Shown in pieces: positions 1 to 14,688 of a stretch of 64,000 bases of DNA. A program made the translations under genes and the position numbers. Numbering within the stretch: the first letter of the stretch is position 1; every line of letters starts with the position of its first letter. Below the pieces are notes generated by a model. The model had not been told where the DNA came from and made no database searches. It saw only the letters and a program-made list of their open reading frames with translations. This DNA comes from Shigella phage ESh28, in the sequence record ON528738, one strand, 5' to 3'.

Positions 1-1121
1 ACCTTGGATATCATCATGGTGAAAACTCTGCGCAAGACGCAGGTGCTTTGATGGCTAACACTTGGAATAATAACTTTCCTCTGTTAGATGGTCAAGGAAA
101 CTTCGGTTCTCGTACTGTCCAAAAGGCAGCGGCAAGTCGTTATATTTTTGCTCGTGTAAGTAAAAATTTCTATAACGTATATAAAGATACTGAATATGCT
201 CCGGTACATCAAGATAAAGAACACATTCCGCCTGCTTTCTATTTGCCTATTATTCCTACTGTTCTTCTTAATGGTGTTTCCGGTATTGCAACTGGTTATG
301 CAACTTACATTCTTCCTCATAGTGTTTCTTCTGTCAAGAAAGCTGTACTACAAGCTCTTCAAGGAAAGAAAGTAACTAAACCGAAGGTAGAATTCCCAGA
401 ATTTCGCGGTGAAGTCGTTGAAATTGACGGTCAATATGAAATTCGTGGAACATATAAGTTTACTTCACGAACTCAAATGCATATCACTGAGATTCCATAT
501 AAGTATGATCGTGAAACTTATGTGAGTAAAATCTTAGACCCGCTTGAAGATAAAGGCTTCATTACATGGGATGATGCTTGTGGTGAGCATGGCTTTGGCT
601 TTAAAGTTAAATTCCGCAAAGAATATGCTTTGAGCGATAACGAAGAAGAACGTCACGCGAAAATTATGAAAGACTTTGGGTTGATTGAGCGTCGTTCCCA
701 AAATATTACAGTCATCAACGAGAAAGGAAAGCTACAAGTTTACGATAACGTAGTTGATTTAATTAAAGACTTTGTTGAAGTTCGTAAAACTTATGTCCAA
801 AAACGAATTGATAACAAAATCAAAGAAACTGAATCAGCATTTTGTTTAGCCTTTGCCAAGGCACATTTCATTAAGAAAGTAATTTCAGGTGAAATTGTTG
901 TGCAGGGTAAAACTCGCAAAGAACTGACCGAAGAACTTTCTAAAATTGATATGTATTCTTCTTATGTTGATAAACTAGTTGGAATGAACATTTTTCATAT
1001 GACTTCCGACGAAGCAAAGAAACTTGCTGAAGAAGCTAAAGCTAAGAAAGAAGAAAACGAATATTGGAAAACTACTGATGTAGTTACCGAATACACCAAA
1101 GATTTAGAGGAAATCAAATGA
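1..1121 (+). CDS. 52: DNA topoisomerase II medium subunit gp52, 5'-truncated by the window edge (frame begins at nt 3)
   Basis: Frame open from nt 3 to TGA 1119-1121; GyrA-like motifs YHHGE and DGQGNFGSR; recalled T4 gp52 sequence; track start 48 is a TTG inside the gene. Confidence 0.85.
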   Translation, partial: LGYHHGENSAQDAGALMANTWNNNFPLLDGQGNFGSRTVQKAAASRYIFARVSKNFYNVYKDTEYAPVHQDKEHIPPAFYLPIIPTVLLNGVSGIATGYATYILPHSVSSVKKAVLQALQGKKVTKPKVEFPEFRGEVVEIDGQYEIRGTYKFTSRTQMHITEIPYKYDRETYVSKILDPLEDKGFITWDDACGEHGFGFKVKFRKEYALSDNEEERHAKIMKDFGLIERRSQNITVINEKGKLQVYDNVVDLIKDFVEVRKTYVQKRIDNKIKETESAFCLAFAKAHFIKKVISGEIVVQGKTRKELTEELSKIDMYSSYVDKLVGMNIFHMTSDEAKKLAEEAKAKKEENEYWKTTDVVTEYTKDLEEIK

Positions 1122-4189: not shown

Positions 4190-4462
4190 ATGAATAAAAA
4201 CATTGATACAGTTCGTGAAATTATTACTGTTGCGTCTATTTTGATTAAATTTTCCAGAGAAGATATTGTTGAGAATCGTGCTATTTTTATCGCATTTCTG
4301 AATGAGATTGGAGTAACGCATGAAGGTAGAAAGTTAAATCAGAATTCATTCCGTAAAATTGTTTCTGAATTAACTCAAGAAGATAAGAAAACCCTCATCG
4401 ACGAATTCAACGAGGGTTTTGAGGGTGTATATCGATATCTAGAGATGTATACAAACAAATAA
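4190..4462 (+). CDS. asiA: AsiA anti-sigma-70 factor
   Basis: 90 aa, MNKNIDTVREIITVASILIKFSREDIVENRAIFIAFLNEIGV...; matches recalled T4 AsiA. Confidence 0.85.
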   Translation: MNKNIDTVREIITVASILIKFSREDIVENRAIFIAFLNEIGVTHEGRKLNQNSFRKIVSELTQEDKKTLIDEFNEGFEGVYRYLEMYTNK

Positions 4463-5119
4463 TTATTTAGCCCTTCCTAATATTCTGGCCGCCTGAGAAC
4501 ATATTGATTCAAGGCGGTCATTACTTATATGATCATTTCTATACCAGTACATGGTTATTGTTCCAGCATAGATATTATCCAAATTAAAATATGGACAACT
4601 GTACATGTAGTTTATTTCGGGAGTAGGCTTTTTAGTTGGTAAAAAAGCAAATTTTGAGTTGGAATAATAATGACGTCCATTTAAATGAACTATATATTCA
4701 TCCATAGTTTTATCGACAGGATATCCTCCAAGTGATTTTTCACTTATTGTTGAAGGTAATTTTCCTTCATATGCTATAATATCAACAAAATAGTTTAAGT
4801 TTTTAGGGCGGAAAGAATACACCGCACTAAAGTCTGCCTCAGATGATATATGAACTATCTGGAGTTGTTCCAGGGCGACAGATTCAAAGCGTGCATTTCT
4901 TTCCTTTTCAATAATTTCACTGTATGTTTCATACTTTGATTGCTTATAGTACTCAAAGAAACTATCTCCCCTATACCAAACAATCGCCATCATAAATAAA
5001 AGAATTACGACAGCTACCCGGGAAGCAAGAACCTTCCCAGTAGCGTTATCTTTGAACAAGCGATCTAGAACACCAAACAGAATACCAGAGGGCGAAAATG
5101 ATATTCTAGGTGCTGCCAT
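4463..5119 (-). CDS. t: holin T
   Basis: 218 aa with N-terminal TM segment; matches recalled T4 holin; SD AAGGAGGG upstream on minus strand. Confidence 0.85.
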   Translation of the reverse strand: MAAPRISFSPSGILFGVLDRLFKDNATGKVLASRVAVVILLFMMAIVWYRGDSFFEYYKQSKYETYSEIIEKERNARFESVALEQLQIVHISSEADFSAVYSFRPKNLNYFVDIIAYEGKLPSTISEKSLGGYPVDKTMDEYIVHLNGRHYYSNSKFAFLPTKKPTPEINYMYSCPYFNLDNIYAGTITMYWYRNDHISNDRLESICSQAARILGRAK

Positions 5120-5149
5120 AGACCCTCCTTTTAAGGGTATTTATTCACA

Positions 5150-5950
5150 TTATACTCTTGGTCCGTAAATTGTTCCAACAACACCCCAAGTTGGAGAAGA
5201 TCCAAACACTGCATGACCAGACGCACCACCAACACCAACTTTAAGAACTTTACCGCCGTCAGACCATGCATTCTGACCAGCAGCACCAGCATTACCACCA
5301 GCGCCGGAGTGTGCGTTACCATAGTCATAACCACCACCCGGACCTTCATACGAAGCAGCACCACCGGAATAACCGCCACCGCCAGCGCCACCGAAAGGTC
5401 GACCACCACCGCCACCGATATCTTGCCAGTTTGCCCCTGAGTGTGGACGATATGCAATACCACCACCGCCGCCACCGCCAGCAGCTATAACACCGTAGTT
5501 CCAAATACGAAGCCGTCCACCGATATCATTTTGAATAACATGACCGCCTTGTGTACCGTTACCGTCGCCTCCTGAGTGAGTGTATCCACCATTACCACCA
5601 CGACCCCACATATGAACACCACCATGAATATTAAGAACAACATATTCATTAGGCGTATCCCCGTACATGAAGAATAAAGGAACATCTTTAGAATATGATA
5701 CTAAATCACCTGTAATATTAAACACTATAGGTGCACTACCGGCCTCAAAACATCTATCTCGGAACCATTGACCATTGAAGTTATGGTCTGCTCCAAGTGT
5801 ATGAATAATTTCTCGTGAGCGACCTGCAAATTGACTCATCCAGCAAGGAACACCCAATCTTAATTGACCAGCCGCTTGACTCATCCATCGTTGCCCTGTT
5901 TCATTTGCGGCTGAACTTCCAATCCAACCAGGAACACCAACTACTGCCAT
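5150..5950 (-). CDS. 38: gp38 receptor-recognising adhesin, T2-type with glycine-rich motifs
   Basis: 266 aa with poly-Gly runs (GGGGGGG, GGGGG); N-terminus [13 protein letters not shown] like T2/T6-type gp38 rather than the T4 chaperone-type gp38. Confidence 0.8.
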
Positions 5951-5963
5951 AATTTATCTCCAA

Positions 5964-5980
5964 AGGGGGCGTTGCCCCCT
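5964..5980 (-). other. intercistronic RNA hairpin between gene 37 stop and gene 38 SD
   Basis: AGGGGGC-GTT-GCCCCCT inverted repeat immediately before the gene 38 SD on the minus strand. Confidence 0.5.
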
Positions 5981-5985
5981 TGTTG

Positions 5986-8931
5986 TTAGAATTTAAAATA
6001 TTTACTAATTTTGCGAGCAATTTTAGTAAAGAAAGGAGTTTTCAATTCTTTAATTTCTTCACTCATTTCCTGAATAGCCTTAATTAAAAGAGCATTCACA
6101 GCAGAGTTAGAAATTGTCAGAACATCAGATCCATCAACTTCAACTTTAGATACAGCTTCCGGTAATTCCTTTTCAAGGTCCTGAGCAATAATACCAACTT
6201 CACGTTTAATAACGCTACGGTCTTTAATAGACTTAACTTTATCGTAAATATAAACTTTCAGTCGGCATACTTTTTCAAGTGCTCCGTTTTCTAACTCTTC
6301 TTTATTAATCTTAAGACGATCATCAGAACGAATATAAACATCGTTAAAGTTGCCATTGGAAGGACAGTAGAAAGTTCCGTCATGATGGAACTCAAATATA
6401 GCTTGAGGATGACCAGCATCAGGAGAAGCCTCCGTGGATCCGACACGAATGATTGCTTGCCCCCACTGTGTTGGAACACGACGCATACCAAAGTCAACAG
6501 CGGTGCTATATCCTTGATTGGTTATAACGCTTCTTGCTTTAAGAATAGGATAATAACTATCTTGACCAACATAACCATGATCAACGAATAATGGAGCTTC
6601 TACTCGCCATTGGTTGCCCCAATCACCCGGTTGTCTAGCAATCCATCCAGAACCGTTAATGCGTACACGATCGCGGTTAACGTTAACCATTGCGGTATTT
6701 TGTGGATTTAGCGAAATCTCACCATTGTTTGTGATATGTACTGCCGCCTGAGTAGCATAGCTATAAAATGCTAGCGAATTATCAGCACCACCCTTGCCAA
6801 TATACCAGTTACCAGTCCCGTCTATGTCACCGCGAATATGCAAAGAATTACTAGCAGTTGTTGATAATACAATAGAATCATTAGGTGCATTGATTGTTAA
6901 CCGACCTGTCATCGTATCACCGCCTTTACCTACGCGAGTATTCAAGGCAGCATCTAAATTTGTCGCATTGTTATATTTCTTCCAGATTGAACCGGCAATA
7001 TTACCATCTGTATTAAGGAACGCATCACCGACATATACACGCCCTGGAGATTTAAAATAACCTGACGGCATGAAAGTCCATTGTTTTAACCCATCTGCTG
7101 TTCCATTAGCGGATAAATCACCCTGAGCAATGATCTTATATTCGGATGTACCTATAGCCATACCAGTGGCAAAGGTGATATTACTTACAGTATTTTTCTG
7201 TTTAACAATTGGCGCAAACTGGTTTTTATTTGAATCGTCAATGGCCTGATATAATGGTGCAATGGTAGTATTCTGATTCGCGTAAGTATTAGAACCAGAA
7301 CCGCTAGCAGGGGCTTGAATATATGCTCCTGGAGCAAGTGAAATTTTCTGATTAGCACCAAGATTAACAGCAGCAGTGATATTCAACAATCCCCTAAAGT
7401 TTTGTTGAGCAGTCCAAGTATGTGATCCGTCTTCAAGAACAACACGGTGAACTGTGCAAGTTCTATTTCCAGAATTACCGAACACACGAACGACAAAATA
7501 ACGGTAGTTTGTCTGGGATACAGTACCACGCCAAACCTGAACAGTACGTCCTGTGCTGGTGTGTTCGCTAGGACCGACAGAAAACATAACCAAGTTTCCG
7601 TCAATCGTCCCCCAATCCATATTTGCTGGCATATTCTTTATTTTGTTCAAAGGAACGCTAAACATACTACCAGGGACAAAATCAAAGGTTTGCCAATCTA
7701 GCTCCGCTAATTGGGCTTTAATACCACCCATACCCAAAGTAATTGGCAAAGAGTAAGATGTATATACTTCGTTCCATGCACCCCACACACCACCAGTATA
7801 TGCACGCTCAAAAATACGATCGCGAGTAGTTGCACCCGTTCCGGCAGTAGTAAATTTTTGGAAAATAGCACCGCCAGAAGCACGTTGTTTAACTTCCAGC
7901 AAACCAACAATAACAGTCGGCAAACCTTCACCTGTAGGACAGTTAATAACGGCATCAGTGCCTAAAATATTATATAACCCAGGGGTTTTAAAATCATTCA
8001 GATCTCCGTCATAGAAAGTCGCTGGTGTGCCATGACCAACCTGCTTCCATTCCTCCCACTTAGGTGCACTAGCATCCCATGCAGCAGCGAGACAACGAGT
8101 ATAAACCATACCCATGCGGGTAGTATAACGCTGAGTTCTCGTGTATAAACCACCTTCAAATATTTCTAAAAATCCTTGTGCGGCTGATCCTTCTTCTGGA
8201 TAATGGCGATCAAATGATGCGATTGCGCTTGAACTGTTTCGCCATAAGCCACAATGTTTTAATTCTCCCAAGCTATCAAGGTCAATCGTTTGTGAAAGTG
8301 GACGAGTTGACGCTTGAACATTACGCCACACACCCCATGGACCATCGACGCCATTCCATTTAGCAGATAAGGAACGAATATAGACGTTACCAGATCTTAC
8401 AGTATAACGCTGAGTGCCAGCAAATTGGCCGGCCACAAATACTTCTAGAACACCTACAGCATTTTCTTCTGGAAATTTATTTGCTGGTTGCGCATTTGTT
8501 GAAGTAGATTTCGACCAAACACCAAGATATTCTTCAATGGGCCCATACGTATCTAAATTAGCATCAGTAGGTAATTCGCCATTATTTTTTATAAATGTTG
8601 TGCTATTGACATTTATGTCAGATGGAGTTAAGGTAATGTCCTTTGACCCATCAAAAGATATACCATTAATTTTCCTAGGTGTTTGCAATTTAGTAGCTGT
8701 GCTAGAATTTCCAATTAAAGTTCCAGTTATATTTTCTGTAACCTCTAAAGACCCATTTATAGTTCCTCCATATTTTAAACCTAATTCTATAACACTACCT
8801 GAGTCATCTTTTGTGAAAATTGTTTTATCTTTTAAGTTTATAGCCAATTCACCTTCGGCTAATACTGAAGCAGCAGGACGTTGACCTGCAGTTTTGCTTC
8901 TTTTAAATTGTATTTGTTTTAAAGTAGCCAT
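5986..8931 (-). CDS. 37: gp37 long tail fibre distal subunit with C-terminal intramolecular-chaperone domain
   Basis: 981 aa; N-terminus [43 protein letters not shown]; C-terminal ~110 aa resembles a self-cleaving chaperone (S74-like) domain. Confidence 0.85.
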
Positions 8932-8939
8932 AAGTCCTC

Positions 8940-9590
8940 TTAATAATAGCCGAAATCTTGAACAGAATCCTTAATTACGATTTGGTCAAATCGTGGAACG
9001 TGTGAAGGTTGAGATGCAGGATTCTGTGAAAAAAGGTTTGGCGCAGTTAAATTTCCTGTCATAGTGTCTCCAGAGCGTAATACCCTAGAGTTTGCATTTG
9101 CTGTAACAGTATTTATTGCTCCATCAACATAATCTTTGCGAGTAACATCAGATGCTGCGGAAGGAGTAGATGTAACAGTTACCGATGGAGCCGTTACAGC
9201 CCTGGTAAATGTTGTCAAACCTTCTGGCGTAATAGTAATTTGTCCAGTAGTGATTTCACTACCTGCAGGTCTAAAACTAATACCACCGGAAGAGCCGCCA
9301 ACTACAAGAGTATTACCAGTGCCGCCACCAGAACGAATTCGGATAGGGGTTTCATTATTACTTAATTGAAGATAACTATTTACCCCGTAATTAATAGTAA
9401 TTGGACCGGCGTAAGTACCACCATTAGCTTTAGAAACGAAATCGTTATCAGCTGCCTGCGGTTTATTATATTCTGAATATATTTTAAATGATTTGTAGAG
9501 TACATCGTCACCGGCTGAATTCAATGGAAAATTTCCTTGATGCCAAATGACAGATCCACCCACAGTTGAACCTACTTTTAAATCAGCCAT
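8940..9590 (-). CDS. 36: gp36 long tail fibre distal connector
   Basis: 216 aa; synteny 34-35-36-37; late promoter upstream. Confidence 0.8.
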
Positions 9591-9613
9591 TATATGCCCC
9601 TTTATTTTAATAT

Positions 9614-9621
9614 TATTTATA
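9614..9621 (-). promoter_or_regulatory. late promoter (TATAAATA) for gene 36
   Basis: Minus-strand TATAAATA ~25 nt upstream of the gene 36 ATG. Confidence 0.65.
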
Positions 9622-9647
9622 AAGAAAAAGGGAACCCGAAGGCTCCC
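9622..9647 (-). terminator. terminator-like hairpin after gene 35
   Basis: Minus-strand GGGAGCC-UUCG-GGUUCCC followed by TTTTTCTTT. Confidence 0.55.
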
Positions 9648-9652
9648 TCAGT

Positions 9653-10768
9653 TTAAACTTCTCTAAATTCCTGTCCAAACACTTTGCCAGTTTTAGAAGA
9701 GGCTTGTGTAGGAAGTACCATTATATCTGGAGGTGAAGCCGATTCACAGACATAATTAACGCGAATACCGTTGACGCCAAATTCGGCAGGTTTTGAAATG
9801 CCGCCATTTCTTGATACTTCAGAAAAACTTAAATTTCTCATGCCGCCTTGACCTGCTTGAGCAGTTCTTTGTGCATATATCGTAAATCCTACGGCGTTTT
9901 CTGGAACAACTACATAGTCTTCTTTTAATTCCCAAGACCCAGCTTGCCCAGTAAACTCAGCTTGGGTCGAGGAAATATATCCATTTGATGCATCATAAAA
10001 ACGAATAGATATATTTGCAGTTCCAAGATCAAGTAAATCAGCATCAGCATATAGTTGTGCTTTAAGATAAAGAACATCACCAGGAATTAAATTGTAGTCA
10101 GAAAGTTTACTTATAGCAGCTGAAGTTGGCAATCGCGCAATTTCATTATTAGTTCCACCAACCGCAGACATAAATTGCTCAACGCTTTCGTATGTTCTTT
10201 TAGGAAATCCTGTAGCTCCGACGTCTTCTAAACTATCAAATACAACATCTAACATAGTTTGATAGTCATCTGTGCTTTTTCTATTACTTAGTTTAACATG
10301 CTCTAATGCGATAGCTCTTTTAGAAGAAGTGTAAAAAGCAGCATATGATACGTCAAATCTTGACAATACTGAATCTGATGGAAAAACTGAAGTTCCTGCT
10401 CCCCTTAACCAAGATACCACTTCAGGAGGAAAATTAACCTTTCCGCTAGTTAATATAGCAACAAGTCTATTGTTTGACAAAGAATTCATGAAACTGACAA
10501 AAGCGGCAGATGTTGTATTGTTTGAAGCAGAAAAAGCATATGACTTGCTATCAACTAATGCTCCCGTAGAAGGGTCAAAAACTCTTAAATGAAGACCTGC
10601 ACTAAATGTTTGATTTCCAACGGGATTATCCTGAAATTTAACATATGGTCCCGCAGTAGAAAGCGGGCAAGAACCCGCTATGCTTATTTTATATCTTACT
10701 GAATTGCTTTCCGATAAAAATGGCGTTTGGACATATCCTTGTCCAAACTCTGCCATAAATTTTTCCAT
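9653..10768 (-). CDS. 35: gp35 long tail fibre hinge connector
   Basis: 371 aa, MEKFMAEFGQ...; matches recalled T4 gp35 (372 aa). Confidence 0.85.
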   Translation of the reverse strand: MEKFMAEFGQGYVQTPFLSESNSVRYKISIAGSCPLSTAGPYVKFQDNPVGNQTFSAGLHLRVFDPSTGALVDSKSYAFSASNNTTSAAFVSFMNSLSNNRLVAILTSGKVNFPPEVVSWLRGAGTSVFPSDSVLSRFDVSYAAFYTSSKRAIALEHVKLSNRKSTDDYQTMLDVVFDSLEDVGATGFPKRTYESVEQFMSAVGGTNNEIARLPTSAAISKLSDYNLIPGDVLYLKAQLYADADLLDLGTANISIRFYDASNGYISSTQAEFTGQAGSWELKEDYVVVPENAVGFTIYAQRTAQAGQGGMRNLSFSEVSRNGGISKPAEFGVNGIRVNYVCESASPPDIMVLPTQASSKTGKVFGQEFREV

Positions 10769-10776
10769 AATACCTC

Positions 10777-13700
10777 TTATTCAATCCACTCAAATTTAAC
10801 AGTTTTATTCACTGGGTCAGGAATAATGCGAACATTACCAATTCGCAAGAAATCGCGAATAGTAAGATTACCTATTATTCCATTATCAGATGGGATCGCT
10901 CCTATATCTGAAGGTTGAGGAGGGTTACCTCCGTCAAATACCTGAACAAAACTTGACCAAGAGTTTTTGGTTTTCTGCCATGTACGTGTCCAGCGAGTGG
11001 TACGTGCTTCTGGGGTCGTTGGATAAGTAATCCAATCTTGGTAAAGTGAATCAAGTGTGTTACCAAACTGAGTCAATGTACCAGGAGATTTAACTTCTTC
11101 ACCACGTTCTAAGTATGGAAGTCCAGTCACTTCATTAGTTTTTTCAACCATCTTAAAATAACCCGGGAACTGGTTATAAGTGGCTGAATCATTAATATCG
11201 ATTGACCAGAATCCTACAGTATCAGATGTTGGAGCACGGGTATATAAATCAGAGGTTTTAGTACCCTGAGAACGAATTCTCGAGTTAACAGTTAAACCAC
11301 CTGAACTTATAGTAGCACCTTTGGCAATGATTAAGCTTTCACCAATCGTTACTTGACCAGATGCATTATTAATAGTTAAAGGACGTAATCCATTAAATCC
11401 ACCGGTCTGATCGCCAGATGCAGTAAGCATAAAATAGGTGTTAGCACCATCATTACGAATAAAGAATCCATAATCACCGTTTATTGCTCTAAAAGCATTC
11501 GATGATTTACTGATAAATTCGCCATTAGCAGTAACTGAACTACCGAATGTTGCAACGCCATTCGCATTCAATGTTCCTGAAGCATTCACATTTATCGGCG
11601 TTACTGTACCGTTGATATTAAATGTTATATTTCCAGCTTTATTACGCTGAGAATAAAAATGACTAGACGTTTCATCACTAACTTCAAATACGGTAGAACG
11701 TGTTGTGTCTGATTCCCCGCTAAATTGATTTCCCCACACTCTGACTGTCATCGTTTGAGCCGGGTTTGTTCCAGTTTGAGGTCCTTTTTCAAAAATCAGA
11801 CGAGTTGCCGTTCCAGTATTAGAAATAGTTAATGTACTATTTGCTGAAACTGATCCACCAAACGTAGCAGTACTAGATGATACAAGAGGGGCACTCAGAT
11901 TCGTTTGTTGGGTTAAGGTTAGTGAACCATTAACTGTTTGTGCAATGTCCCTACGAATGAACTGGAGCGAATCTAGACCATCTAATAAATTACTATCTAC
12001 AGCTTTTGCTTTTAATGGCAAATAATTTGCTAATACGCGATTTAATTCATATGGTGATACTGCATAACCATTTTTCTCATATGATTCTAATGGCTGTGTT
12101 GAACCTACCGTATCATTACCAACGAACGTAATTGAACCAGATGAGGTTTTAACAAAACCTCTTATTGCAGTAGTAGCTGCCCAAGTAGGTTCACTCTGCA
12201 CAATCCATTTTAAATTTTTTGGAGATACAGCAGTATTTGCTGACGTTCCAGCTACAGTTTCAGACCGAGTTGCAACTTTAATAACGCCTTCCTGTGCTTC
12301 AGTAGATTTAGTACCTAAAAGCTTTTTAGGAGTTATTAGAACATTATCCAATGTTCCTGCAGCAGCTTCAACTTGTGTAGCTACACGAAGTGTACCACGC
12401 TGTGTCTCATTTGCTTCAAGAATATTAAGGGTATAATGGTCCCAGAGAGTTCCTGATTCAACTAATCCAGATAGAGCAACAACAGAAGTACGATCAGTAC
12501 TATTAAATCTGGTTTTAATTTTTAATGGTGTAGAGATACGAGTATCGTCGACGCCTGCGTCGAATTCAACTTGCGTAGCAATTTCAGCTATACCACTTAA
12601 ACTTTCAGTTGCTCTACGGTCATTTAAAGTTTTAGGAGTGACTGCACGAGTATAATCAGTTCCTGTATTAACTTCACTTTGTGTAGCAATTTCAATTAAA
12701 CCAATTCTTGCATCAGTTGATGTCTTTTTATGTAACGTTTCTGGCGTTACAACCGCATTTGCCCATCCTTCTTGGCTTTGTCCAGCAATTACTTCACTTT
12801 CAACTGCTAAAATTACTGCGCCTTGTTGCGTTGGAGTAGCTTTATACTGATCCAAAGCTTTAGGTGAAACAACTAAATTATTAGTGTTTTTATTATAAAC
12901 ATTCGTACCATTTAATTCACGACTAGAAGCTGGAGTAGCTCCTGCGGTAGATACAAAAGTTACAATACCAGATAATGATTCAGAACCTTGACGAGCTTGA
13001 AGCTTTTTAGGAGTGATGATTGTAGTATCATCAGTACCTGTATTAGTTTCCTGCTGCGTAGCAATTTCAGCGACACCTCTGCGAGTTTCAGTAGCCGTTC
13101 TTTCATTCAGCTTTTTAGGAGTGATGATAAGGTCATCAGCAAAAGAGAATGTAGTATCCTGGTTAACTTGAGCAGTAGTTGCTATTCTTGCAATACCTCT
13201 GCGAGTTTCTGTAGCAGTACGGTTAGCTAATGTTTCTGGAGTAATTGCTAATTCTTTTTGTGGAGAATTTTCTAAATCAGCATTAGCTTGAGCTTGTGTA
13301 GCTAAAGCAATTACCCCTAATCTTGCTCTAGTAGAATCATTTAAAGAATCTACTCTTTCTACAGTTGGAACGTTTTGCTGTACAACCCAGTATTTTCCAT
13401 CAGAATCTTCAATATATGCAAGCTCTAAAACTGGAACATAATTAGTTTCACCGTTAAAAACTAATTCTTGAACTGTAACCCACTCAGCTTCAGGCGGATA
13501 TTCTGAGCGTTTTGGGAATTGCAGTAATTGAACTGAAGAAGCAATTTTATCTTCACCTGCAGCTTTGATTTTAACCGTTTGTCCTTTTCTCATGTAATTC
13601 ATGGAAATTTTGACAGTATCACCAACAGAAATATCAGTCGGAAGCTGAAGTTCAATTGTCTGAGCTGTTCCGTTATTCGCACCAAATACCATAACTTCTT

Positions 13701-14646
13701 CATTTGGACGAATATTAGAATTAGTTGTTATAATGCGTAAACGTGCTTTACTATCCCCGTCAAACAATCTCCACAATTTCTCATTATCATCAAACATCAA
13801 GAAACCGTCAATCGATGTACGACCTTCAATGGAATGAGTTCCAACTTCTTGTACTGAAGTTGTTTCATCATATGTAGTAACAATTGTGTGATAAAGAGGA
13901 TTTAATTTATCTAAATCAACGAAATTAATAATATCGCCATGATTAGCAAATCTTGGAAGTTTAATATTAATCGGCGCAGCGGAAGTAAATCTACGCACGA
14001 TAAAATCATTAGATTGCGCCTGATAAAGACTTGCCGGTGTTACAACTGCAGCTTCTCTGCTATAATCAGCAACATACATTTGCCACAGACGATTACTAAA
14101 AATTAAAACTATCTGTGATTTTGGATGAGTCATTAGTACTGAGCGTACTTGTTGACCTCTAAAGTTTACAATGCTTTGTACCGGAGCTGTAATTAAAACC
14201 TGGTTAACTCCAGGTTTTCCTCCAATATCTTGGAGAACGATAGTATCACCATCAATTGGAGAAGATGGTAAAGTAAATGTAATGTCATTACCAGCTGCAG
14301 TATCAACTGAAATTGATTCGCCTGATTTTAATTGATAAGGTCCTGATGAAACAGTTGTCCAGTTTGCATCAGTACGTAACGCTCTCCAGCGTACGCTATT
14401 AAAAGCTCCTGCTGGTTTCGGAATATCATTTATAGCAGCCCAAAAGCGGTTATCATAAATGATTACAAAATCTTTTAAATATCCACGAGTTGGATCATAT
14501 TGTTGAACTGTGTTTTCTTGAATTAAGTAATCAACGTTAACACCGTCAGTTCCTACGGCACGATCAGCTAAAGCTACGTTGATTATTTTATCGCCACCTG
14601 CGTCCAGACCGTCTTCTGCTCTGAACTTTCTTTTAATCTCGGCCAT
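10777..14646 (-). CDS. 34: gp34 long tail fibre proximal subunit
   Basis: 1289 aa (same length as T4 gp34); internal repeats of ~40 aa ending ITPKKL; N-terminus MAEIKRKFRAEDGLDAGGDKIINVALADRA. Confidence 0.85.
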   Translation of the reverse strand: MAEIKRKFRAEDGLDAGGDKIINVALADRAVGTDGVNVDYLIQENTVQQYDPTRGYLKDFVIIYDNRFWAAINDIPKPAGAFNSVRWRALRTDANWTTVSSGPYQLKSGESISVDTAAGNDITFTLPSSPIDGDTIVLQDIGGKPGVNQVLITAPVQSIVNFRGQQVRSVLMTHPKSQIVLIFSNRLWQMYVADYSREAAVVTPASLYQAQSNDFIVRRFTSAAPINIKLPRFANHGDIINFVDLDKLNPLYHTIVTTYDETTSVQEVGTHSIEGRTSIDGFLMFDDNEKLWRLFDGDSKARLRIITTNSNIRPNEEVMVFGANNGTAQTIELQLPTDISVGDTVKISMNYMRKGQTVKIKAAGEDKIASSVQLLQFPKRSEYPPEAEWVTVQELVFNGETNYVPVLELAYIEDSDGKYWVVQQNVPTVERVDSLNDSTRARLGVIALATQAQANADLENSPQKELAITPETLANRTATETRRGIARIATTAQVNQDTTFSFADDLIITPKKLNERTATETRRGVAEIATQQETNTGTDDTTIITPKKLQARQGSESLSGIVTFVSTAGATPASSRELNGTNVYNKNTNNLVVSPKALDQYKATPTQQGAVILAVESEVIAGQSQEGWANAVVTPETLHKKTSTDARIGLIEIATQSEVNTGTDYTRAVTPKTLNDRRATESLSGIAEIATQVEFDAGVDDTRISTPLKIKTRFNSTDRTSVVALSGLVESGTLWDHYTLNILEANETQRGTLRVATQVEAAAGTLDNVLITPKKLLGTKSTEAQEGVIKVATRSETVAGTSANTAVSPKNLKWIVQSEPTWAATTAIRGFVKTSSGSITFVGNDTVGSTQPLESYEKNGYAVSPYELNRVLANYLPLKAKAVDSNLLDGLDSLQFIRRDIAQTVNGSLTLTQQTNLSAPLVSSSTATFGGSVSANSTLTISNTGTATRLIFEKGPQTGTNPAQTMTVRVWGNQFSGESDTTRSTVFEVSDETSSHFYSQRNKAGNITFNINGTVTPINVNASGTLNANGVATFGSSVTANGEFISKSSNAFRAINGDYGFFIRNDGANTYFMLTASGDQTGGFNGLRPLTINNASGQVTIGESLIIAKGATISSGGLTVNSRIRSQGTKTSDLYTRAPTSDTVGFWSIDINDSATYNQFPGYFKMVEKTNEVTGLPYLERGEEVKSPGTLTQFGNTLDSLYQDWITYPTTPEARTTRWTRTWQKTKNSWSSFVQVFDGGNPPQPSDIGAIPSDNGIIGNLTIRDFLRIGNVRIIPDPVNKTVKFEWIE

Positions 14647-14680: not shown

Positions 14681-14688
14681 TATTTATA
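14681..14688 (-). promoter_or_regulatory. late promoter (TATAAATA) for gene 34
   Basis: Minus-strand TATAAATA ~35 nt upstream of the gene 34 ATG. Confidence 0.65.

Follow-up and report, generated by a model that had tools for sequence, protein, structure and literature searches.

Several phages have been described in which the distal end of the long tail fibre, made of gp37, is capped by a gp38 adhesin. In Salmonella phage S16, whose gp37–gp38 tip complex has been solved (PDB entry ID, 6F45), the last 113 residues of gp37 are autocleaved at DLNVS^SDRRIKK, and phages of the fPS group have a homologous cleavage site, DVYIR^SDGRLKI (PMC7917993); the conserved tryptophans of S16 gp38 serve as prongs that insert into pockets of gp37 (PMC6851490). 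As receptors, T2 uses FadL/OmpF and T6 uses Tsx (PMC3157838), PP01 binds the OmpC protein of E. coli O157 (PMC12892980), and Ox2 binds loops of OmpA, with the OmpA dependence of FL08 and AV119 demonstrated experimentally (PMC12032242); for S16, the title of Marti et al. 2013, as cited in PMC7917993, reports recognition of Salmonella OmpC. Receptor specificity has been attributed to the segments located between the glycine-rich motifs of gp38 (PMC3157838, PMC12032242).

Here we compare with these systems a locus of Shigella phage ESh28 (sequence record ON528738), located in a stretch of 64,000 nucleotides that was analysed as a whole and is referred to as the window. The locus very probably encodes the distal, host-recognising end of the long tail fibre of a Tequatrovirus, in the adhesin-capped form of the T2/T6/Ox2/S16 type, working by the mechanism proposed below.

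Gene organization and fibre type

The ORF list places two genes with ATG starts on the minus strand, g37 (5986..8931; distal long-tail-fibre subunit precursor, 981 aa, 107 kDa) and g38 (5150..5950; receptor-recognising adhesin of the Ox2 type, 266 aa, 26.9 kDa), exactly at the positions, and for gp38 with the length, given in a preliminary description of this DNA. The domains, repeats, segments and recombination interval described below, as well as the intergenic hairpin and the late-promoter motif, all lie on the same strand. The ORFs and their matching family hits follow the T-even order g34-g35-g36-g37-g38-t, in which g38 is located between g37 (stop codon at 5986–5988) and the downstream holin gene t (4463–5119), the product of which matches Phage_holin_T (E-value, 7e-116). 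The GC content climbs locally to 51% at 5001–5500 because of the GGN codons for glycine.

A GC-rich hairpin with the core GGGGGC-AAC-GCCCCC (5963..5981; predicted, −12.9 kcal/mol) was read from the sequence between the g37 stop codon and the ribosome-binding site of g38, and a hairpin at this position is kept in Ox2, Sf21, T6, PST, REP2, T2, and T4 despite changed sequence. Upstream of g36, an exact match to the T4-type late-promoter motif, TATAAATA (9614..9621), probably marks the start of a g36-g37-g38 late transcript, by analogy with late transcription in T4, and a terminator-like hairpin (9649–9628) directly follows g35. A scan of 4300–9800 for sigma-70 promoters was uninformative, yielding 11 hits, fewer than the 16.7 found in shuffles. 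A non-coding RNA explanation for the region or the window was rejected, with no tRNA and no Rfam family found at the gathering threshold.

T4 has the same gene names in the same order, which would also suit an arrangement in which the C-terminus of gp37 forms the receptor-binding tip and gp38 is an assembly chaperone absent from the virion. This T4-type arrangement was rejected on the domain make-up of gp37 and on the BLASTP comparison of gp38. In the Pfam comparison, gp37 of T2 and T6 contains the S74 domain, whereas T4 gp37 consists of Collar and Phage_fiber without S74; gp37 of the window carries S74 but neither Collar nor Phage_fiber, and no alignment with the tip of T4 gp37 was obtained. 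Similarly, gp38 showed no similarity to the 183-aa T4 gp38 in BLASTP (best E-value, 3.6 over 7 residues), being instead a full-length member of the GP38 adhesin family. The probability left to the T4-type arrangement is thus practically negligible, and the T2/T6 architecture given in the preliminary description is borne out, an alignment of gp38 to the T4 chaperone type without glycine-rich motifs being precisely what was not obtained. Both T2 and T6 share with the window an S74-terminated gp37 followed by a GP38 adhesin, although T2 gp37 has 1341 aa and is only about 25% identical to gp37 of the window beyond the first 50 residues.

The gp37 precursor and its intramolecular chaperone

The 981-aa product of g37 matched PHROG 1699, "long tail fiber protein distal subunit" (E-value, 4e-208), and its exact sequence is already deposited (URY14000.1, Shigella phage ESh28). 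Its proximal shaft contains two tandem repeats of ~85 aa (residues 125–205 and 217–298; 8038..8559), identified by BLASTP between the copies (40% identity; E-value, 7e-20). Self-BLAST of gp37 did not list these internal repeats, and a suspected third copy was not found by the pairwise comparison. The repeats are probably "knob" domains; one cluster member of gp37 is named "pyocin knob domain-containing S74 family peptidase" by NCBI.

The C-terminal 113 residues (869–981; 12.9 kDa; 5989..6327) are assigned to an intramolecular chaperone of the Peptidase_S74 family on the basis of the Pfam match, a sequence motif, and the fold. Pfam Peptidase_S74 (PF13884, "Chaperone of endosialidase") matched residues 869–927 with an E-value of 5.6e-11 and a score of 43 bits (curated cut-off, 22 bits). 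The domain begins with the motif DVYIR|SDDRLK, in which Ser869-x4-Lys874 leaves exactly 113 C-terminal residues, the same number as is removed in S16. Self-cleavage is accordingly predicted before Ser869. The sequence DVYIR|SD recurs unchanged in REP2, Ox2, Sf21, T6, and EC.W14-2, and none of Ser869, Asp870, Leu873, and Lys874 varies among 30 homologues, some of which are as distant as 26–33% identity. A profile built from these 30 chaperone-domain homologues matched 6F45_A, 8JOV, and the ICA domain of MyRF (7DC3). In the AF2 model, the S74 domain was predicted with pLDDT of 80–95, and the best 12 matches of the model in the PDB were all intramolecular chaperone domains, such as 7DC3 (E-value, 1e-5), 3GUD, 4UW8, and 3GW6. 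The endosialidase-type chaperones (endoNF of K1F, 3GW6; GA-1, 3GUD; pb1 of T5, 4UW8; MyRF ICA, 7DC3) share with this domain the Pfam family, the fold, and the extreme C-terminal position on a trimeric fibre, but the sequence identity is low (10–22%), and the passenger in the window is a T-even fibre shaft rather than a sialidase or a transcription factor.

The Pfam score of 43 bits is moderate, as might be found for a degenerate, non-cleaving remnant of the domain, with gp37 staying full-length and gp38 being attached elsewhere. Such a remnant is nevertheless highly improbable in view of the four cleavage-motif residues (Ser, Asp, Leu, and Lys) that never vary across the 30 homologues, the confident model resembling intramolecular chaperone folds, and the conservation of residues 901–981 (96–100% with Ox2, Sf21, and T6), which is maintained even though the neighbouring fibre is mosaic. 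The auto-cleaving type of chaperone domain that had been suspected at the C-terminus of gp37 is therefore well founded in family, motif, and fold, and the domain at 5989..6327 is predicted, from its homologues, to be self-cleaved and released.

By analogy with the homologous systems, gp37 would first be made as the 981-aa precursor, in which residues 869–981 would drive the trimerisation and folding of the β-helical fibre as an S74-type intramolecular chaperone. The chaperone would then cut itself off between Arg868 and Ser869 by means of a Ser869/Lys874 dyad and dissociate, exposing a flat DVYIR tip on the trimer of mature gp37. From the position of SDDRLK, the mature protein is predicted to comprise residues 1–868 (~94 kDa; 6328..8931), with the DVYIR end as the putative docking face for gp38. 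A phmmer search of gp37 against the PDB matched only the chaperone region of 6F45_A, so that, at the sequence level, no solved structure is close to the distal tip of the mature protein. Thus, while S16 resembles the window in its three-domain gp38, its 113-residue chaperone, and the Ser-Asp-x-Arg-x-Lys motif, its gp38 is only ~40% identical, and its gp37 just before the cleavage site could not be aligned by phmmer.

The gp38 adhesin and its hypervariable segments

The overall sequence of gp38 is that of a GP38 tail-fibre adhesin of the T2/T6/Ox2/S16 type, a membership supported by several lines of evidence. Pfam GP38 (PF05268) matched residues 47–266 over the entire profile (1–218 of 218; E-value, 2.6e-67; 227 bits against a curated cut-off of 25 bits), Gp38_N (PF21721) matched residues 1–42 above its curated cut-off (E-value, 1.5e-19; 70 bits), and PHROG 2056 was matched with an E-value of 1e-109. 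The Pfam matches of gp38 and gp37 lie well past what chance could give. By phmmer, gp38 was related to the receptor-binding domain of PP01 gp38 (9V85; E-value, 3e-65) and to S16 gp38 (6F45_D; 2e-42). The AF2 model of gp38, a predicted β-helix with a polyglycine sandwich (pLDDT, 86), matched only the same two entries in the PDB (E-values, 1e-25 and 2e-20, respectively; next hit, 2). The PP01 domain is the best structural match (Foldseek E-value, 1e-25; TM-score, 0.89 on the target; sequence identity, 61%), with a β-helix core identical in sequence, whereas the hypervariable loops differ. The exact gp38 sequence is already deposited (URY13999.1 from ESh28, and AUV63795.1) and is 100% identical to that of Sf21; Shigella served as the isolation host of the deposited phages that carry it.

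The N-terminal attachment domain (residues 1–46; 5813..5950) is defined by the Gp38_N match and by the conservation of its tryptophans, Trp9, Trp22, and Trp37, which are invariant in an alignment of 5 gp38 sequences; among 61 gp38 sequences, Trp9 and Trp22 are conserved in at least 90%. If gp38 is incorporated as in the homologues, one monomer would dock on the DVYIR tip of the gp37 trimer, in a 3:1 ratio, through the three helices of this domain, with Trp9, Trp22, and Trp37 being placed in three equivalent pockets of gp37.

The C-terminal half of gp38 is predicted to fold into a polyglycine-II sandwich made of the glycine-rich motifs. The content of glycine is 26% overall and 36% in residues 111–266, with uninterrupted runs at Gly158–Gly164 (7 residues), Gly179–Gly183 (5), and Gly190–Gly193 (4); both the length of 266 aa and the long poly-Gly motifs noted in the preliminary description are thus confirmed. 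On the basis of column entropy and the AF2 model, residues 116–250 were delimited as the specificity domain with a polyglycine sandwich core (5201..5605), containing five glycine-rich motifs (residues 116–122, 158–164, 179–190, 218–225, and 241–250). The alignment of gp38 with T2, T6, and other adhesins, proposed at the outset, mapped four hypervariable segments (HVS) between them, namely HVS1 (residues 123–134; 5549..5584; mean entropy, 1.79 bits), HVS2 (residues 165–178; 5417..5458; 2.51 bits), HVS3 (residues 191–217; 5300..5380; 1.81 bits), and HVS4 (residues 226–240; 5231..5275; 2.28 bits). When computed per alignment column over 61 adhesins, the mean entropy was 2.06 bits for the HVS as compared with 0.83 bits elsewhere (Mann–Whitney p = 2e-20) and 0.59 bits for the glycine-rich motifs. 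This layout agrees with that reported by Trojet et al. (PMC3157838). The segments between the glycine motifs, which had been put forward as the likely determinants of specificity, indeed vary more than any other part of the family, in keeping with the literature cited above, and the four HVS would form distal loops off the sandwich that contact the receptor, most likely OmpA of E. coli or Shigella through its surface loops.

Ancestry of the locus and its predicted receptor

The closest described adhesin is the receptor-recognising protein encoded by gene 38 of Ox2 (X05675, CAA29158.1; Henning laboratory), also of 266 aa, from which gp38 of the window differs at 4 positions (A14S, A15V, N174K, and G193R, window to Ox2). 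The overall identity is 98.5% with Ox2, 73% with T6, and 48% with T2. HVS1 and HVS4 are identical to those of Ox2 (12/12 and 15/15 residues, compared with 2/12 and 0/15 for T6), and HVS2 and HVS3 each differ at a single position (13/14 identical, Asn174 vs. Lys; 26/27 identical, Gly193 vs. Arg), so that 66 of the 68 HVS residues are shared with Ox2. The corresponding numbers are 60 for AV119 and 59 for FL08, and fall to 7–11 for T6, T2, M1, PST, REP2, and Ac3 (T2, 11; T6, 10). Hence, the "T2-type" label of the preliminary description holds for the architecture but not for the sequence and the predicted specificity, in which the adhesin is of the Ox2 type and not of the T2 or T6 type.

The locus is a mosaic, in which a REP2/PST-like g37 is joined to an Ox2-like specificity domain of g38. 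Positions that distinguish REP2 from Ox2 carry the REP2 letter in the window down to 5894 and the Ox2 letter from 5660 to 5162, which places the junction between the REP2/PST-like part (g37 plus the start of g38) and the Ox2-like rest of g38 within 5660..5894; 100-nt identity bins agree with this crossover. The DNA is 99–100% identical to that of Ox2 from about 5900 to 5150, and the 3′ end of g37 and gene t on the flanks are the same, but the Ox2 gp37 fragment is only 65–80% identical in the upstream distal shaft (residues ~730–850). Over the final ~50 residues of mature gp37 (about 6270–6480), no full-length match in the phage collection exceeds 88% DNA identity.

The near-identity of the HVS to those of Ox2, together with their closeness to those of the OmpA-dependent FL08 and AV119, leads us to predict OmpA as the receptor; judging from the homologues, the adhesin most likely targets the loops that OmpA exposes on the surface of E. 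coli or Shigella. In the "type 1" OmpA-binding Gp38 of FL08 and AV119, the N-terminal attachment domain differs from that of the window (24–26 of 46 residues identical), and Arg165–Ala170 and Asp217 of FL08 have been named as OmpA-contacting residues (PMC12032242). Arg168–Ala173 of gp38 aligns with FL08 Arg165–Ala170, with Arg168, His170, Ser171, Gly172, and Ala173 equal to the named contacts Arg165 and His167–Ala170, while Pro169 and Asn220 replace Val166 and Asp217 of the type 1 adhesins, as they do in Ox2.

These replacements bear on the alternative that, with the same architecture, the receptor is another molecule than OmpA or one used in addition to it, such as OmpC, another small β-barrel, or the LPS core, as found for Ox2 host-range variants. 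Asn220 occupies the position at which type 1 adhesins have the Asp listed among the OmpA contacts, 2 of the 68 HVS residues (Asn174 and Gly193) are unlike those of Ox2, Pro169 is a further difference, and the host is Shigella. In Ox2-type adhesins, one substitution in the HVS can be enough to change or widen the range of receptors used (PMC12892980, PMC12032242); receptor specificity changes with point mutations in the hypervariable regions of Ox2 (PMC12892980), and Ox2 itself behaves in a complex, multi-receptor manner, more than one host component being required for its full infectivity (Trojet et al.; PMC3157838). However, Asn174 and Gly193 are the majority residues among natural relatives, both occurring in the OmpA-dependent FL08 and AV119; therefore, it is Ox2 that carries the unusual residues. 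Considering also the complete identity of HVS1 and HVS4 to those of Ox2, we regard a receptor other than or additional to OmpA as unlikely. Literature searches on the receptor of Sf21 and on ESh28 found nothing relevant.

A further consideration concerns the natural chimera itself: gp37 and the attachment domain of gp38 are of the REP2/PST type, the specificity domain is of the Ox2 type, and the two parts are joined in the conserved 5′ half of g38. It seems quite doubtful, but conceivable, that the unusual tip, or Asn174, Gly193, and Asn220, would change which OmpA alleles are used or confer an extra receptor (e.g., Shigella-specific OmpA loops). If so, this phage would offer a test, already made by nature, of the rules of adhesin swapping.

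Altogether, the module is an ordinary and well-studied one that adds no new biology, its architecture, the structures of its homologues, the cleavage mechanism, and the exact protein sequences being already published or deposited. Its practical value lies in the Ox2-type identity of the adhesin, by which OmpA is predicted as the receptor for the phage and its relatives; if this prediction is right, loss of ompA or variation in the OmpA loops would be a likely route to resistance, and the mapped HVS and the recombination junction indicate sites for host-range re-engineering.

Gene organization of the g37–g38 locus

The genes for the predicted Ox2-type adhesin gp38 (266 aa) and the distal long-tail-fibre subunit precursor gp37 (981 aa) were found as translated ORFs at 5150–5950 and 5986–8931 on the minus strand, exactly where the preliminary description had placed them. 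Together with g34 (10777–14646), g35 (9653–10768), g36 (8940–9590), and the holin gene t (4463–5119), they form a cluster in the canonical T-even late order, every gene of which gave the expected Pfam or PHROG match. The opposite flank carries homologues of asiA, arn, and motA, as in Sf21, T2, T6, and T4. Exact copies of the T4 late-promoter motif, TATAAATA, are located just upstream of g36 and g34 (9614–9621 and 14681–14688, respectively, minus strand); the motif occurs 16 times in the whole window, versus 8.6 copies expected.

A terminator-like hairpin lies 3′ of g35 (9649–9628). Another, GC-rich hairpin (5963–5981, minus strand; core GGGGGC-AAC-GCCCCC, −12.9 kcal/mol) occupies the g37–g38 intergenic gap, just before the g38 Shine–Dalgarno sequence, and recurs at the same spot with varying stem sequences in Ox2, Sf21, T6, PST, REP2, EC.W14-2, T2, and T4. 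With only three T residues after it, this hairpin would make no more than a weak terminator; a role in RNA stability or translational coupling is possible. No tRNA gene was found in the whole window (1–64000), and no Rfam family reached the gathering threshold there. Group I introns in particular gave no signal, even though the window spans the segment syntenic with td, nrdA, and nrdB in related phages.

Proteins identical to gp37 and gp38 are deposited for Shigella phage ESh28 (URY14000.1 and URY13999.1), the closest records in the searched phage collection are ~94–97% identical to the window, and crystal structures, 1980s genetics, and recent receptor-mapping papers exist for the adhesin family. 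The gp37–gp38 finding is correct but already known.

Fibre-tip architecture

Glycine makes up 26% of gp38 and 36% of its residues 111–266, with runs of 7, 5, and 4, and this accounts for the local rise in GC content to 51%. Pfam assigned the protein to GP38 (E 2.6e-67, full profile coverage) and Gp38_N (E 1.5e-19). A phmmer search of the PDB retrieved only 9V85 (E 3e-65), the receptor-binding domain of PP01 gp38 (PMC12892980), and S16 gp38 (6F45_D; E 2e-42), and the same two entries alone were recovered by Foldseek (E 1e-25 and 2e-20; next, E 2) with the AlphaFold2 model of gp38 (56 homologues in the alignment; pLDDT 86). S16 gp38 docks onto gp37 through three tryptophans (PMC6851490), all of which are present and conserved here as W9, W22, and W37.

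At the C-terminus of gp37, the intramolecular chaperone domain Peptidase_S74 ("chaperone of endosialidase"; S74) was detected at residues 869–927 (E 5.6e-11). Its motif contains Ser869 and Lys874, and predicted self-cleavage between Arg868 and Ser869 leaves 113 C-terminal residues, the same chaperone length as in S16 gp37, which is autocleaved at DLNVS^SDRRIKK (PMC7917993). In related phages the equivalent site is DVYIR^SDGRLKI, where the DVYIR strands make up the face on which gp38 docks (PMC7917993); the window gp37 has the same DVYIR|SD junction, which is invariant in REP2, Ox2, Sf21, T6, and EC.W14-2. Ser869, Asp870, Leu873, and Lys874 are invariant in 30 homologues, with identities down to 26%. 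A profile of these homologues matched S16 gp37 (6F45_A), 8JOV, which is also a phage fibre, and the ICA domain of MyRF (7DC3). For the AlphaFold2 model of the last 183 residues, the best 12 PDB fold matches were all intramolecular chaperone domains, the fold resembling those of MyRF ICA, GA-1 (3GUD), T5 pb1 (4UW8), and K1F endosialidase (3GW6).

As a control, S74 was also found at the gp37 C-termini of T2 and T6; T4 gp37 lacks it and carries Collar and Phage_fiber domains instead. This supports a T2/T6 rather than a T4 type. The preliminary description, which had proposed this architecture with a glycine-rich gp38 and a self-chaperoning gp37, is therefore borne out in each respect, and the architecture is almost certainly correct. 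BLASTP found no similarity between gp38 and the T4 gp38 chaperone (183 aa; E 3.6), and a T4-type chaperone reading was rejected.

Mosaic ancestry of gp37 and gp38

Residues 1–500 of gp37 are nearly identical to those of Sf21 and T6, residues ~500–780 resemble only REP2, PST, and EC.W14-2, and the chaperone domain is common to all of these. At sites distinguishing REP2 from Ox2, the window agrees with REP2 down to 5894 and with Ox2 from 5660 to the g38 end, which places the junction within the conserved 5′ portion of g38, before the first glycine-rich motif. Exchange at conserved segments has already been described for this locus (PMC3157838, PMC12032242). Between flanks 95–100% identical to REP2, a small patch at 6270–6480 (minus strand; gp37 aa ~818–887) diverges locally: among full-length matches in the phage collection, none exceeds 88% identity. 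It lies at the end where gp38 would dock and covers the final ~50 residues of the mature protein together with the first part of the chaperone domain. In the proximal shaft, two tandem ~85-aa repeats (8038–8559, minus strand; aa 125–205 and 217–298; 40% identity, E 7e-20) are probably the "pyocin knob" domains that appear in the NCBI name of a cluster member; a third copy, similar by eye (aa ~305–390), was not significant in BLASTP.

Hypervariable segments and predicted receptor

Following a check proposed in the preliminary description, an alignment of 61 adhesins, from one database search plus Ox2, T2, T6, PST, and REP2, was used to map column entropy onto gp38. Four hypervariable segments (HVSs; aa 123–134, 165–178, 191–217, and 226–240) lie between five conserved glycine-rich motifs (aa 116–122, 158–164, 179–190, 218–225, and 241–250; mean 0.59 bits), with a mean entropy of 2.06 bits versus 0.83 at all other positions (p 2e-20). 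This is the layout reported by Trojet et al. (PMC3157838), and receptor specificity has been assigned to the hypervariable loops (PMC12032242).

In tblastn against the phage collection, gp38 was identical to that of Shigella phage Sf21 (100%), and shared 98.5% identity with Ox2 (X05675), 73% with T6, and 48% with T2. The Ox2 protein differs by A14S, A15V, N174K, and G193R, and at 174 and 193 the window has the majority residue of natural relatives. Identical HVS residues number 66 of 68 with Ox2, 59–60 with the experimentally OmpA-dependent FL08 and AV119, and 7–11 with T6, T2, M1, FL18, PST, REP2, and Ac3. The OmpA contacts of "type 1" adhesins, R165–A170 and D217 in FL08 numbering (PMC12032242), align to R168–A173 and N220, with five of seven identical; the differing residues, P169 and N220, also differ from FL08 in Ox2.

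A gp38 99.2% identical to that of the window is recorded for "Pseudomonas phage PsgM02F" (OR584013.1), whose listed host is Pseudomonas coronafaciens pv. garcae. Such a host is unexpected for a Tequatrovirus whose adhesin is of the OmpA type, and the label may reflect contamination or mislabelling. In Ox2, Sf21, REP2, and the window, gp38 begins with a conserved MAVVG. The deposited annotations of T6 (AP018814, 8711; MEKIM...) and PST (KF208315, 3380; MPPLEKIM...) start 4 and 7 codons further upstream, respectively, and both have probably been extended too far.

Ox2 binds OmpA at its extracellular loops (PMC12032242), and behaves as though more than one host component were needed (PMC3157838). 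Given the Ox2-like HVSs, OmpA is therefore predicted as the primary receptor, a likely assignment by analogy if the architecture is correct; architecture and receptor together are considered probable. In its sequence, motifs, and predicted folds, the locus fits a mechanism in which the chaperone would be cut off gp37 and gp38 would then cap the fibre. By analogy with S16, Ox2, and the FL and AV phages, gp37 would be cleaved, one gp38 would be mounted on each trimer, and the adhesin would bind OmpA.
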